A stretch of 64,000 bases of DNA. Origin: an uncultured Prevotella sp. (GTDB lineage: Bacteria > Bacteroidota > Bacteroidia > Bacteroidales > Bacteroidaceae). Position 1 is the first letter of the stretch. Each line of letters starts with the position of its first letter. Where the stretch lies: NCBI GenBank assembly GCA_937898715.1, contig CALEKA010000064.1, positions 17-64,016 of the forward strand, given 5' to 3'. A program made the position numbers and the translations under genes. Shown piece after piece: positions 52,474 through 54,966 of the stretch. The notes beneath the pieces are model-generated. The model had not been told where the DNA came from. It saw only the letters and a program-made list of their open reading frames with translations, and made no database searches.

Positions 52474-54966
52474 ATGATACTCAATCTTTTCGACCGGATG
52501 AAGCTCCCGTTTCGTAAGAACAAGGAGTTCCTTTCGGCCCTTTATGATATATTGGGCTTCTATCCTCACAATATAGAGCTCTATCGTGTGGCATTCTCTC
52601 ACAAGTCGCTCGGTTACCGCAAGGATGGCCCCAATAATAGCTCCGCCAAGGATCGCAAGGATCGGAAGGGCGGACCCTCTCAGCGCGACCGTCGTCAAGA
52701 CCGCAAGCCGCGCCCCGATGCCCCTGTGCGCCCGCTCAACAATGAGCGCTTGGAATACCTCGGCGATGCCGTCATCGAGAGCATCGTGAGCGACATCCTT
52801 TTCCGCCACTTCCCCACCAAGCGTGAAGGCTTCCTCACCTCCACCCGTTCCAAGATCGTGCAGCGCGAGTCGCTCAATCGTCTTGCCACCCAGATGGGGC
52901 TTGAAAAACTCATCCTCGCTGCCCAAGGCACTCACATGAGCCACACCAACATTGGTGGTAATGCTTTTGAAGCCCTCATGGGCGCCATCTATCTCGATCG
53001 CGGTTACAAGACTTGCCATTGGTTTATCTCCAATCGCATCATCGGCACCTACATCGACCTCGACAATGTGGCACAGAAGGAAGTCAACTTCAAGAGCAAA
53101 CTCTTAGAGTGGGCACAGAAGAATCGCATCAACACCAAGTTCAACGACCAGAGCGATGGCGAACGCGGTTTCCACTCCTCCATCGTGCTCGAGGGCATCA
53201 CCATCGGTCGCGGTAGCGGACGTTCGAAGAAGGAGAGCCAGCAAGAAGCAGCTAAGGAAGCCCTCACCCGCATGCGTCGTGAGCCCAAGACCTACGACAG
53301 CATATTCCGCAGTAAGGAGAAGCGCACTGCCATGGAGGCAGAAGAGAGTTTCGCACTGCCCAAGATCGACGAGATAGAAGATACGATCAAGCCCTCCAAG
53401 CCCCGCCGTGGCGCCAAGGCCACCGAAGCCACAGCCCCCGTGCTCGAGACGAAGAAAGGCCCATCACGCTCCGACTCCGACGACGCTTACGACAAGGCCT
53501 ACGATGCTTCGGCACAATATGAGGTGATCGACACGCCGCCTGCAGAGTCCCAACTCACGCAGTCCGACTACGATGCCATGGGCCTGCCCGCTCCTCCCGA
53601 GGAGAACGAACTCCTTGAAGCCGACGAGAAGCTTCGCAAGAAACGCACGCGCAATCGCGGTCCGAAGACCCTCGGCGATGCTGTGAAGGGACAGGACAAG
53701 GGCGCTTCAACGGCAGAAGAGAAGGCTGCTCGTCGAGAAGCCGAACGCATGGCCGAAGTAGAGCGCCAGCGTGCTAAAGCAGAGCGTAAGCGCCAGGAGG
53801 CAGAAGCCGCTCGCGAGGCGGAAGCCGCTGCCGAAGCCGAACGCGTGGCTCGCCAGAAGGCTGAGAGCAAGGCCAAGGCTGCTAAGGCCAAAGCCGAAGC
53901 AGAGCGCAAGGCTCGCGAAGAGGAGCGCAAAGCACGTCTCGAGGCTGAAGAACTCGACCTCATCAGCCAGGCTGAGGCTGCCAAGGAAGCCCTCTCTATA
54001 GAGGAAGACGCAGCCCTCTCTCACTGGACAGAACTTGCGCCACCGCCCGAGAAGCCCGTCCGCAAAGCCGAGAAGCCCGTCCGCAATGCCGAGAAACCCG
54101 CTCACAAAGCTGAGAAGCCCGCAGAGGTAGTTCCCAAAGCTCCAAAAGCTAAGGCTGAGAATTCCGCCGCAGTGGCTGAGGAGAAACAGAATGCTGTGGC
54201 TGAGGAGAAGCCTCTTAAGAAGACTGAAAAGCCCTCTAAGAAAGCCGAGAAACCTGCTCCTCAGACCGAGAAACCCGCTCCTCAGACCGAGAAACCTGCT
54301 CCTCAGACCGAGAAACCTGCTCCTCAGACCGAGAAGCCCGCAGCACAGGCAAAGCCAACTGCTGTGAAGGCTGAGAAGCCAGCTATCGCCTCGTTGCTAC
54401 AAGCCGTCGCAGAACACATAGAAGATGCTCACGACGATTCAGCTGCTGACGAAGCTATGGAAAAGGACACAGCTGTCTTAGCCGATGCTGCTATCGACAA
54501 CCTCGCTGCAACCCTCGCCGACGAGACCCTTGAAGATGCGCAGACCGCTATCGATACCGCCGATGCCGCCCTCAGTATCTCCGCAGCTGGTGAGGAGGAA
54601 GAATCCTTTGCCGACGACAATGATGTGGAACGTCAGATCCAAGCTTTCGCTCAAGACGTCGTGACCAATGAAGCTCCTGCCGAAGAGCCCAGCCCTAAAG
54701 CAGAGGAAGACGACGGTACTGAACACGGAATGCCCCACATCTCGTTCGATGAAATCGTATTCTCTACCGAGCACGACGACCATCTAAGCGAGATCTCCGC
54801 AGCCGAGGCTTCCGAGGGTGAGGCTCGTCCTCAGCGTAAGAAGCAGAATCGCCGTCGCCGTCGTCCCAACAACGGTCCGAAGCCAGCCGACAATGCTCAA
54901 GGAGCTACGGAAGAGCGCCCGAAGCAGAAGCCCCATCGCCGCCGCCGTCCGAGTGGCGAGAAGTAA
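52474..54966 (+). CDS. rnc: Ribonuclease III with very long low-complexity C-terminal extension
   Basis: NERLEYLGDAV, EG.LT..RS.IV, GNAFEALMGAIYLDRG, dsRBD (FKSKLLEWAQ...G.SKKESQQEAA), acpP-fabF-rnc order. 830 aa in total. Confidence 0.93.
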   Translation: MILNLFDRMKLPFRKNKEFLSALYDILGFYPHNIELYRVAFSHKSLGYRKDGPNNSSAKDRKDRKGGPSQRDRRQDRKPRPDAPVRPLNNERLEYLGDAVIESIVSDILFRHFPTKREGFLTSTRSKIVQRESLNRLATQMGLEKLILAAQGTHMSHTNIGGNAFEALMGAIYLDRGYKTCHWFISNRIIGTYIDLDNVAQKEVNFKSKLLEWAQKNRINTKFNDQSDGERGFHSSIVLEGITIGRGSGRSKKESQQEAAKEALTRMRREPKTYDSIFRSKEKRTAMEAEESFALPKIDEIEDTIKPSKPRRGAKATEATAPVLETKKGPSRSDSDDAYDKAYDASAQYEVIDTPPAESQLTQSDYDAMGLPAPPEENELLEADEKLRKKRTRNRGPKTLGDAVKGQDKGASTAEEKAARREAERMAEVERQRAKAERKRQEAEAAREAEAAAEAERVARQKAESKAKAAKAKAEAERKAREEERKARLEAEELDLISQAEAAKEALSIEEDAALSHWTELAPPPEKPVRKAEKPVRNAEKPAHKAEKPAEVVPKAPKAKAENSAAVAEEKQNAVAEEKPLKKTEKPSKKAEKPAPQTEKPAPQTEKPAPQTEKPAPQTEKPAAQAKPTAVKAEKPAIASLLQAVAEHIEDAHDDSAADEAMEKDTAVLADAAIDNLAATLADETLEDAQTAIDTADAALSISAAGEEEESFADDNDVERQIQAFAQDVVTNEAPAEEPSPKAEEDDGTEHGMPHISFDEIVFSTEHDDHLSEISAAEASEGEARPQRKKQNRRRRRPNNGPKPADNAQGATEERPKQKPHRRRRPSGEK

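Follow-up and report, generated by a model that had tools for sequence, protein, structure and literature searches.

The rnc open reading frame of the window, the 64,000-nt stretch of DNA analysed here, occupies 52474..54966 on the + strand, the strand of all its parts described below, and encodes 830 residues plus a stop codon, with an ATG start and no internal stop. In the ORF directory it is preceded by a fabF-like ORF at 51066-52382. Bacterial RNase III is viewed as a compact ~25-kDa enzyme without a scaffold role, and the 220-300 residues given as its usual length in the original prediction for this DNA agree with the open frames of other families in the order, which measure 220-290 residues in 13 of 14 matches. 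The same prediction described a nuclease domain and a dsRNA-binding domain (dsRBD) that run on without a stop for ~550 further residues. The ORF and the Pfam layout bear this out, every peptide quoted at the time is located in the translation of 52474..54966, and about 550 residues lie beyond residue 280 (nt 53311), the tail being put at about 525 to 550 residues.

The nuclease domain, residues 89-191 (52738..53046), matches PF14622 (2.7e-24; 86.2 bits, cut-off 35) and PF00636 (9.5e-21; 74.9 bits, cut-off 27), and it is followed by a single C-terminal dsRBD at residues 207-265 (53092..53268; PF00035, 1.2e-12; 48.7 bits, cut-off 23; pLDDT 90-94). Nothing besides RNase III and dsRBD families was found at E<=1 in a Pfam scan of the whole protein. 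The signature N89-A99 is invariant across 72 family sequences except at position 95 (Y/F), and the same set shows no variation at E91, E94, D98, E118 and E166. The catalytic acidic residues of the E. coli enzyme are E38, E41, D45, E65, D114 and E117. The equivalent of D114, at the GGNAFEAL position, is N163, an Asn in all 72 sequences; E. coli and Aquifex RNase III have Asp there. A basic low-complexity insert at residues about 50-87 (52621..52734) separates the N-terminal helices from the NNERLEYLGD signature; it is confined to the long-tail clade described below and has a pLDDT of 52-54 amid an otherwise confident core. The TIGR02191 equivalog model scores 161.3 bits, narrowly under its cut-off of 166.25, with a match spanning residues 89-266 only, a shortfall attributed to the basic insert and not to truncation. 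The top Foldseek matches of the core model are 1o0w, 7r97, 2ez6 and 2nug (probability 1.00), and the core matches RNase III and Drosha in the PDB by both sequence and fold. By fold, signature and single dsRBD, the protein is a class-1 bacterial RNase III.

The tail reads as genuine coding sequence by several measures. Its frame contains 0 stops, the other five having 10, 27, 6, 14 and 17, and no stop-free sequence was obtained among 1000 dinucleotide-preserving shuffles of the tail DNA (mean 15.7 stops). The whole tail is open in two independent database proteins, P0003 (819 aa) and P0002 (823 aa), the latter short of one PAPQTEK unit; the indels found in related-strain contigs from public sequencing runs are all frame-preserving, and dozens of related species keep the tail frame free of stops over 1.5-2 kb. 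On the substitution pattern, purifying selection acts on the tail, with dN/dS values of 0.178, 0.282 and 0.179 in three close pairs (0.027, 0.030 and 0 for the core). An assembly or read-through artefact, with the true protein ending near residue 280-300, had been named in the original prediction as the outcome that would overturn it. That explanation is scarcely credible, being contradicted by a frame kept in independent assemblies, strains and species, by selection on the tail and by the failure of all 1000 shuffles to stay open. As judged from sequence comparison, the tail is coding, evolutionarily maintained and not artefactual.

One 260-nt contig of an RNA-library run matches 54667-54926 with 12 differences, which is no evidence of transcription, and 54070-54489 had no matching contig in the small share, 0.06-0.07, searched of each of four public runs. 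A scan of promoters and terminators gave counts no higher than expected from shuffles. Across 50000-57000, the Rfam scan returned only a sub-threshold plant miRNA model, discarded as a chance match (30 bits, far under the gathering score of 196).

The part of the protein that follows the dsRBD is built of distinct segments. A conserved post-dsRBD helix, YDSIFRSKEKRTAMEAEESFALPKIDEIE (residues 271-305, 53284..53388), is common to short-tailed relatives; a regular expression for it matched 45 of the 47 long forms and, among the 27 shorter ones, 17. There follows a conserved motif module at residues 306-412 (53389..53709), defined by invariant columns in 24 sequences, by alignment and by profile search. 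It contains PVLE (322-325), AYDKAYDASAQYEVID (338-353), GLPAPP and the basic patch KLRKKRTRNRGPKTLGDAVKG (386-406), of which the peptide KLRKKRTRNRGPK quoted earlier forms residues 386-398 and whose consensus ends in KTxGDAVKG. A long helix rich in A/E/R/K occupies the 105 residues 414-518 (53713..54027; AF2 pLDDT 82-92) and is of the single-alpha-helix type. Only 11 of these 105 residues are hydrophobic, there is no heptad core, and a coiled-coil reading was rejected because at most 5 of 30 a/d positions are filled by L/I/V/M in any heptad register. Opposite charges at i,i+4 are modestly enriched in the helix (18 pairs against 12.8 +/- 2.8, a value reached in 105 of 2000 shuffles), and a similar stretch is present in 17 of 63 long forms.

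Beyond the helix, a region of EKP/PAPQTEK heptad repeats extends over 54047..54384 (EKP repeats at about residues 525-637) and is encoded by two 21-nt tandem arrays. The 21-bp repeat, originally placed at 54245-54328 in four copies, was recovered by Tandem Repeats Finder as 4.3 copies at 54245-54335 with 97% matches, along with a second 21-nt array of 3.6 copies at 54047-54121 (85%). An acidic block then covers residues 641-780 (54394..54813; NCPR -0.15 to -0.35 per 20 residues, pLDDT mostly <50), within which are counted the island IASLLQAVAEHIED (residues 638-651) and the hydrophobic-acidic island MPHISFDEIVF (residues 753-763, 54730..54762). The consensus of the latter in relatives is hRHhSLDDFVFG, and its D759, V762 and F763 are at least 90% conserved. 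Two Arg-rich motifs follow: RPQRKKQNRRRRRP at residues 785-798 (54826..54867), which includes RKKQNRRRRRP (788-798) and whose R795-R797 are at least 90% conserved, and KQKPHRRRRP at residues 817-826 (54922..54951), near the C-terminus, which includes KPHRRRRP (819-826) and whose R825 is conserved to the same degree.

Most of this tail is predicted to be disordered. In the AF2 model used for this purpose, based on a 72-sequence alignment, the core has pLDDT values of 86-96, residues 291-410 of 41-73 and residues 519-830 of 34-57, leaving helix 414-518 as the sole confident element of the tail; an earlier run with 24 sequences (mean pLDDT 49.9, poor even in the nuclease domain) was set aside. 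Apart from that helix, the model thus predicts an intrinsically disordered tail. It is rich in A/E/K/P and net acidic (net charge -22, NCPR -0.04); hydrophobic residues account for 12% of it and charged residues for a fraction of 0.39. Charges are segregated (z=3.7, above the highest of 500 shuffles; z 2.7-8.9 in eight close relatives), with acidic blocks at 321-380 and 641-780 alternating with basic patches in conserved order. Low pLDDT and charge segregation thus both accord with the disordered, charge-blocked tail first described. No match to the tail was found in the PDB at E<=1, and a protein-atlas search with residues 300-830 gave no usable match. A hydrophobic-moment scan detected no cationic amphipathic segment with a bulky hydrophobic face, such as the helix that anchors RNase E to the membrane. 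The hydrophobic islands of the tail are acidic, and 631-649 is the only stretch with windows that combine a net charge of at least 0 with five or more bulky hydrophobic residues. The predicted complex of the core dimer (residues 1-305, two copies) with module 306-412, run without controls, scored 0.01 against a mark of 0.32, a result that speaks neither for nor against intramolecular docking.

Long tails are concentrated in one Bacteroidales genus-level clade, with relatives titled Prevotellamassilia, Alloprevotella or Prevotella, and this distribution, together with conserved short linear motifs, answers the call for an ortholog alignment that came with the original prediction. Searched against 1.84 billion proteins, a profile of the motif module retrieved 36 representative clusters, of which 31 are on RNase III; one apparent carrier, P0140 (3800 aa, DUF5801 repeats), was rejected as compositional, with only 28 profile positions matched, repeatedly. 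By regular expression, 120 tail homologues contain AY..AY..EVI in 119 cases, the basic KT...AVK patch in 120, the hydrophobic island in 113 and the Arg run in 115. Motif sets vary between subclades, and among 47 species-level forms of at least 600 aa the first three of these features are present in 30, 22 and 17, respectively. The conserved islands, PVLE and AYDxAYD...YEVID among them, sit in fast-evolving spacers with tandem repeats. Several Firmicutes-titled loci (Oribacterium, Christensenella, Clostridiales, Oscillospiraceae) were considered as cases of horizontal transfer, an idea rejected because they fall among Bacteroidota-titled loci on the core gene tree; on that placement, their titles are treated as bin mislabelling.

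Within the genus, RNase III ranges from 269 to 984 aa. Three of 23 congeneric proteins compared are tail-less, at 269-284 aa, and six measure 354-511 aa; the three tail-less congeners make the tail an accessory and not a core requirement of RNA decay in the group, and on this evidence it is dispensable on an evolutionary scale. Shorter relatives across the family end in a conserved amphipathic C-terminal helix, [RD]E.II..AE..AF, carried on a variable linker and present in 18 of 27 forms below 600 aa and in none of the 47 longer ones. A putative 644-aa form, G091, was discarded, its open stretch lying upstream of an actual protein of about 346 aa with a short tail. The tail might then be the product of a largely neutral expansion, slippage and repeat growth having lengthened the old linker to the C-terminal helix into a mostly tolerated spacer. 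Repeat variation fits such a history, since the copy number of the 21-nt repeat differs between strains and two proteins with identical cores are separated by 151 gap columns, as does the length series in the genus, which on the core gene tree rises stepwise from <400 through 400-599 to at least 600 aa. It is nevertheless a distinctly unlikely account of the tail as a whole, given a dN/dS of 0.18-0.28, well below 1, the maintenance of an open frame for 1.5-2 kb across dozens of species, and several tail columns without any variation in 24 sequences. Columns that are invariant or conserved to 90% or more thus stand amid tail sequence that cannot otherwise be aligned.

The conserved alternation of acidic and basic blocks could also reflect autoregulation, in which the acidic blocks and islands would mimic nucleic acid, fold onto the dsRBD, the basic insert or the Arg-rich motifs, and gate activity until displaced by RNA or a signal, with no need for an external partner. 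The basic insert beside the catalytic domain, found only in the long-tail clade, points in this direction, as does the tethered C-terminal helix of 18 of the 27 short relatives, a layout typical of an intramolecular ligand. The co-occurrence of insert and tail is confined to a single clade and so counts as one event, and ~525 residues with repeats and a 105-residue helix far exceed the needs of a tethered inhibitor. Autoregulation of this kind is rather unlikely.

A tether to pre-ribosomes or the nucleoid has been weighed as well. Since the rRNA precursor is the housekeeping substrate of RNase III, the Arg-rich ends and basic patches might, like ribosomal-protein extensions, hold the enzyme on nascent rRNA or assembling ribosomes so that processing is co-transcriptional, with no recruitment of decay enzymes. 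No feature of the tail is retained more widely than the Arg-rich termini (37 of the 47 long species forms, 115 of 120 homologues), and the RNase III fold is ribosome-bound in mitoribosomes, mL44 chains being among the fold matches of the core and Pfam RM44_endonuclase matching it at 2.1e-6. Such a tether would leave the conserved acidic islands and the net acidic charge unexplained, and tail-less congeners presumably process rRNA normally, all of which makes it improbable.

The original prediction had asked whether the RNase E/G of the genome lacks a scaffold tail; it does, the homologue being a protein of 527 aa without a comparable extension, encoded by a separate ORF and the sole PF10150 match in the genome. 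RNase Y, which is a decay scaffold in Firmicutes and whose presence counts against a scaffold on RNase III, is present as a 510-aa protein, likewise without a comparable tail, and PNPase is also encoded. Among six-frame ORFs, no charged tract of low hydrophobicity is longer than the RNase III tail, with its 586 flagged residues; the next among identified ORFs is IF-2, with 367. In the Rho ORF, about 330 residues precede the RNA-binding domain. The tail motifs were found on no other six-frame ORF of the genome, and there is thus no lead to a competing or shared ligand.

Taken as a whole, these observations are best explained, if tentatively and somewhat short of an even chance, by a multivalent interaction platform carried on a probably catalytically competent class-1 RNase III. 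Within one Bacteroidales genus-level clade, the C-terminus would have been extended by a translated, disordered and modular tail. Its basic patch and two Arg-rich motifs may bind RNA non-specifically and so raise the local concentration of substrate RNP, although bulk RNA binding is not favoured by a tail that is net acidic; the acidic-aromatic and hydrophobic-acidic islands, as short linear motifs, may serve as docking sites for protein ligands or for basic segments of the enzyme itself; and the alternating blocks of charge, along with the rigid A/E/R/K helix and the EKP repeats, may act as spacers allowing weak self-association. RNA binding, partner docking and any condensation are inferred here by analogy, and a dsRNA nuclease would thereby have gained a scaffold of the RNase E type as it occurs in Proteobacteria. 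The RNase E-like scaffold first proposed keeps the support of disorder, charge blocks, Arg-rich segments, repeats and motifs, and it lacks that of a membrane helix or of a tail motif elsewhere in the genome; a degradosome or condensate scaffold is plausible on these terms. A bolder version places RNase III, in preference to RNase E or RNase Y, at the centre of an assembly for RNA processing in the Prevotellamassilia-like clade, with clients recruited through AYDxAYD...YEVID and hRHhSLDDFVFG and RNA condensed through charge blocks and Arg-rich ends, as a convergent counterpart of degradosomes and BR-bodies. That version is a speculative one, and the chances are against it.

What is new here is an RNase III with a long, conserved tail, predicted to be disordered and with an inferred function; no literature on extended bacterial RNase III was found in a search whose scope left out most subscription journals. 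A whole gut Bacteroidales clade appears to maintain, under selection, a tail that is double the enzyme in size and has the sequence grammar of an RNase E scaffold; no such RNase E scaffold is known in Bacteroidota. If the tail recruits partners or condenses, a degradosome-like organisation could be built on a different nuclease, and the organisation of RNA decay in Bacteroidota would become directly testable. Experiments are made feasible by a cultured relative, titled Prevotellamassilia timonensis strain Marseille-P2831T (L056), which encodes an 812-aa form, and the graded series from 269 to 984 aa in one genus offers natural material for studying the origin of disordered regions and short linear motifs from repeats.

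Among known systems, the closest are the class-1 enzymes of Thermotoga maritima (1o0w), Aquifex aeolicus (1yyk/2nug) and E. coli (7r97), which have in common the NERLEYLGD nuclease domain followed by one dsRBD and are matched by sequence (E 1e-21 to 1e-10) as well as by fold. To this plan the protein of the window adds the ~35-residue basic insert, the post-dsRBD helix and the ~525-residue tail, and its family differs by the Asn at GGNAFEAL (N163). Related RNase III proteins of Bacteroidaceae/Prevotellaceae (330-540 aa) share the core, the post-dsRBD helix and a variable charged linker, and end in [RD]E.II..AE..AF, whereas the long forms have the Arg-rich ends and module 306-412. Drosha, with a long disordered extension that is Pro-rich and Arg/Ser-rich, contains in its RIIIDa domain the sequence that the nuclease domain matches best in the PDB (6v5b, E 1.9e-27) and shares the Asn (NCFEAL); it differs in having two tandem nuclease domains and an extension that is N-terminal, and no homology is claimed between the extensions.

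A same-phylum precedent for an RNA enzyme with an acquired disordered region is Rho of Bacteroides thetaiotaomicron, whose disordered, compositionally biased insertion is reported to have a regulatory effect (PMC13269538, PMC10284900), although the enzyme is another one and the insertion is N-terminal, in contrast to the C-terminal tail of RNase III. The non-catalytic region of RNase E is reported to have as its conserved features disorder, composition bias with an AEPV-rich part, tandem repeats and embedded microdomains (PMC4435900). The RNase III tail resembles the gamma-Proteobacteria scaffold so described in its long disordered C-terminal region, composition bias, repeats, Arg-rich segments and microdomains; it differs from RNase E in its unrelated catalytic domain, the absence of a membrane-targeting helix and the net acidic charge of the tail, with no homology to RNase E/G. 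In alpha-Proteobacteria, the disordered C-terminal region of RNase E is reported to drive phase-separated bodies, and the tail described here is like this BR-body scaffold in placing charge blocks in the disordered tail of an RNase, while the sequences are unrelated.

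The rnc ORF (52474..54966, forward strand; 830 codons from an ATG start, free of internal stops on translation) encodes a bona fide RNase III that carries a translated, selected, predicted-disordered and charge-blocked tail. Its nuclease domain, signature, dsRBD and fold all place it in the RNase III family. The nuclease domain spans residues 89-191 (PF14622, 2.7e-24; PF00636, 9.5e-21) and is followed by a single dsRBD at residues 207-265 (Pfam, 1.2e-12); beyond these two, the protein gave no Pfam match at E<=1. The fold of the core (residues 1-305) is closest to 1o0w, 7r97 and 2ez6 (Foldseek), and its PDB sequence matches include the Aquifex, Mycobacterium, Campylobacter and E. 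coli enzymes. Invariant positions in a 72-sequence family alignment are N89-A99 (except position 95, Y or F), E118, G162, N163 and E166. There are two caveats: the NCBIfam equivalog TIGR02191 scored 161.3 bits over residues 89-266, narrowly under its cut-off of 166.25, and N163 stands at the position that we take to be D114 of E. coli RNase III. Across residues 83-180 (52720-53013), human Drosha RIIIDa (1.9e-27) is a better match than the best solved bacterial RNase III, that of Thermotoga (1o0w, 1.1e-21), and it has the same Asn in its N-x-F-E-A-L motif, a residue invariant in 72/72 family sequences. A basic, Arg/Lys/Asp-rich low-complexity insert of about 35 residues (about 50-87; 52621-52734) separates the N-terminal helices from the catalytic signature; it is present only in the long-tail clade and is predicted by AlphaFold2 to be disordered.

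The original prediction was that of an RNase E-like scaffold tail on RNase III, and the elements it described are in the protein. The basic patch KLRKKRTRNRGPK, the E/R/K/A helix, the EKP heptads and the acidic block lie where it had placed them, and the MPHISFDEIVF island and two Arg-rich motifs are present in the translation. Its 21-bp repeat was recovered by Tandem Repeats Finder as a 21-nt unit in 4.3 copies (54245-54335, 97% matches), together with a second array of 3.6 copies at 54047-54121.

Several lines of evidence argue against the tail (residues 306-830) being an artefact, an explanation that we find very hard to credit. Its frame contains no stop, against 6 to 27 in the other five frames, and 1000 dinucleotide-preserving shuffles of the 1575-nt tail DNA all contained stops (mean, 15.7). 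Of 7998 proteins scored against residues 280-830, 1299 passed E<=1e-3, and the 120 listed of these, 477-918 aa long, all have RNase III and dsRBD Pfam domains. The tail of one database protein (P0002, 823 aa) is 95% identical and differs by exactly one PAPQTEK unit, with the frame kept, as it also is in a second (P0003, 819 aa) whose repeat region is rearranged. Related-strain contigs from public runs have an in-frame 21-nt insertion behind 53901, and the rest of their indels add up, contig by contig, to multiples of three. Nei-Gojobori dN/dS estimates for core and tail, respectively, in three close pairs of loci were 0.027 and 0.178 (L002/L003), 0.030 and 0.282 (L014/L015), and 0 and 0.179 (L001/L005), from which it follows that the tail is translated and that purifying selection acts on it, though less strictly than on the core. 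The tail also evolves through indels; the L001 and L005 cores are identical, yet the two proteins are 151 gap columns apart. A mostly neutral low-complexity expansion that includes a few functional motifs is in our judgement rather improbable.

An AlphaFold2 model built on the 72-sequence alignment gave pLDDT values of 86-96 for residues 1-45 and 88-290 of the core, 52-54 for the basic insert (residues 51-85), 41-73 for residues 291-410, 82-92 for a continuous helix at residues 414-518, and 34-57 for residues 519-830. The tail had no match at E<=1 among PDB sequences. It consists of 20% Ala, 15% Glu, 10.5% Lys, 8% Pro, 7% Arg and 6.5% Asp, with 12% hydrophobic residues vs 29.5% in the core, a fraction of charged residues of 0.39 and a net charge of -22. 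Charge segregation exceeds that of 500 shuffles (z=3.7; 2.7-8.9 in eight close relatives), and the charges form seven successive blocks: basic (residues 301-320), acidic-aromatic (321-380), a basic patch (381-400), a mixed-charge helix, mildly basic EKP repeats (521-637), acidic (641-780) and an Arg-rich end (781-830). Of the 105 residues in the long helix, 11 are hydrophobic, and with no heptad core it looks like a single alpha-helix spacer; a coiled-coil reading was set aside for want of that core. A similar stretch occurs in only 17/63 long forms. No cationic amphipathic helix of the membrane-targeting type was found in the tail, the hydrophobic islands of which are acidic. An autoregulatory tail that folds back is another reading, which we deem unlikely.

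Conservation is concentrated in short motifs set in fast-evolving, repeat-rich spacers. An alignment of nine close-clade orthologues reveals sharp islands in an otherwise mostly unalignable tail. Invariant columns in 24 sequences are P322, V323, E325, D336, A338, Y339, A342, Y343, E350, V351, I352, D353, R391, T399 and V404, and at least 90% of the sequences keep D759, V762, F763, R795-R797 and R825. Regular-expression counts over the 120 listed tail homologues, which are close kin and thus not independent, were 119 for AY..AY..EVI and for G[LI]P.PP, 120 for the basic KT...AVK, 113 for the hydrophobic island and 115 for the Arg run. Among 74 complete RNase III ORFs from the best 80 species-level loci, the 47 forms of at least 600 aa have the AY motif in 30 cases, the KT...AVK patch in 22, the hydrophobic island in 17 and the Arg run in 37; as the groups were defined by length, such counts are descriptive only.

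The tail is confined almost entirely to the RNase III of one clade. A profile of the motif module (residues 306-412) found 36 clusters at E<=1e-3 among 1.84 billion representative proteins, and 31 have RNase III domains (28 of 33 Pfam-scanned, plus three from the tail-homologue search). Four lacked a Pfam match, and three of these look like gene-call fragments of long-tailed RNase III; one cluster, an unrelated repeat protein matched over just 28 profile positions, was rejected. No other six-frame ORF of the window's genome was found to carry the tail motifs. Within the genus, 14 of 23 assembled RNase III proteins reach at least 600 aa (the longest, 984), six have 354-511 aa and three 269-284 aa; in other families of the order, 13/14 matches are open frames of 220-290 aa. 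A family survey gave an RNase III match in 188/201 genomes (35 genera). Open frames of at least 500 aa among the 150 matches listed belong to the window's genome (G000) and four congeners (G162, G229, G197, G013), to one genome of another genus (G186) and to G091, where the length reflects an upstream open stretch and not a long RNase III. Related loci are titled Prevotellamassilia timonensis, Alloprevotella sp., uncultured Prevotella sp. and Bacteroidales MAGs, and the locus titled P. timonensis type strain (L056) encodes an 812-aa form. Four long-tailed loci (L059, L070, L079, L087) are on contigs titled Clostridiales, Oribacterium, Oscillospiraceae and Christensenella (Firmicutes); since they sit among Bacteroidota-titled loci in the core tree, the bins they come from probably carry wrong labels or contamination.

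Across the family, relatives of medium length have the post-dsRBD helix in common, followed by a variable charged linker. In related Bacteroidaceae/Prevotellaceae genera, RNase III has a conserved helix at its C-terminus, [RD]E.II..AE..AF, and the charged, variable linker that tethers it comprises about 30-300 residues (loci L018, L020-L022, L011, L034-L038, L040, L043-L045, L050 and L051); no published description of this family-wide motif was found. It occurs in 18/27 forms under 600 aa and is C-terminal in 0/47 forms of at least 600 aa. Long forms have an internal island, IASLLQAVAEHIED in the rnc protein, which may be a remnant of this helix. In a gene tree built from the core with FastTree (106 distinct rows, some genomes being entered twice, as G handle and as named contig; tail columns left out), forms under 400 aa are basal, those of 400-599 aa intermediate and those of at least 600 aa nested, with 58/59 of the latter in one clade of 65 rows. 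The pattern fits a stepwise growth of the linker by repeat expansion, with new motifs fixed afterwards, and the same route is proposed for RNase E microdomains in PMC4435900.

A fabF-like ORF (51066-52382) precedes rnc, and the next ORF on its downstream side (56098-57390) lies beyond 1.1 kb of intergenic DNA. Downstream of rnc, an inverted repeat starts about 75 nt past the stop (55040-55146; 31-nt arms, 97% complementary, 45 nt apart), with a related 17-nt direct copy at 55188-55204; it could be a terminator, a REP-like element or a mobile-element end. Further into the intergenic region, about six tandem copies of the 22-nt unit AATTACCCATGGGAACAGAAAA (55446-55602) look like an iteron-like or binding-site array, for which no Rfam family was matched.

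The best reading is tentatively that the tail is a multivalent platform, a functional analogue of the RNase E C-terminal region, a role that we infer by analogy. Under this reading, RNA capture would fall to the basic and Arg-rich segments and ligand docking to the acidic-aromatic and hydrophobic-acidic islands, with the long helix and the repeats as spacers. The evidence against it is substantial, as the tail has no known partner, is net acidic and lacks a membrane anchor, subclades differ in motif sets, congeners without the tail exist, and RNase Y (510 aa) is encoded in the genome. The genome also has a PNPase, and its sole RNase E/G homologue, a 527-aa ORF, stops directly behind the catalytic and small domains. 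The more specific proposal of the original prediction, a degradosome or condensate centred on RNase III, is doubtful. A tether to pre-ribosomes is, in our judgement, rather improbable as well. The structural finding is robust and unusual, and a cultured relative makes the tail testable. The literature covered, which took in few subscription journals, yielded no account of an extended RNase III in bacteria.

By a crude composition filter, no six-frame ORF of the genome has a longer charged, low-hydrophobicity tract than the RNase III tail (586 flagged residues). Eight high-ranking ORFs have a Pfam identity, those with the longest tracts being IF-2 (367 residues), a penicillin-binding protein, an amidase, FtsK, Rho and FtsH; higher ranks in the list are out-of-frame ORFs. 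The Rho open frame (L133, G000:C54:25779-27875; 699 aa) has about 145 flagged residues, and its RNA-binding domain begins only at residue 335. This large N-terminal insertion is reminiscent of the disordered one in Bacteroides thetaiotaomicron Rho, which PMC13269538 and PMC10284900 report to phase-separate. With the RNase E scaffold, the RNase III tail has only design principles in common, the rnc protein itself being outside the RNase E family.
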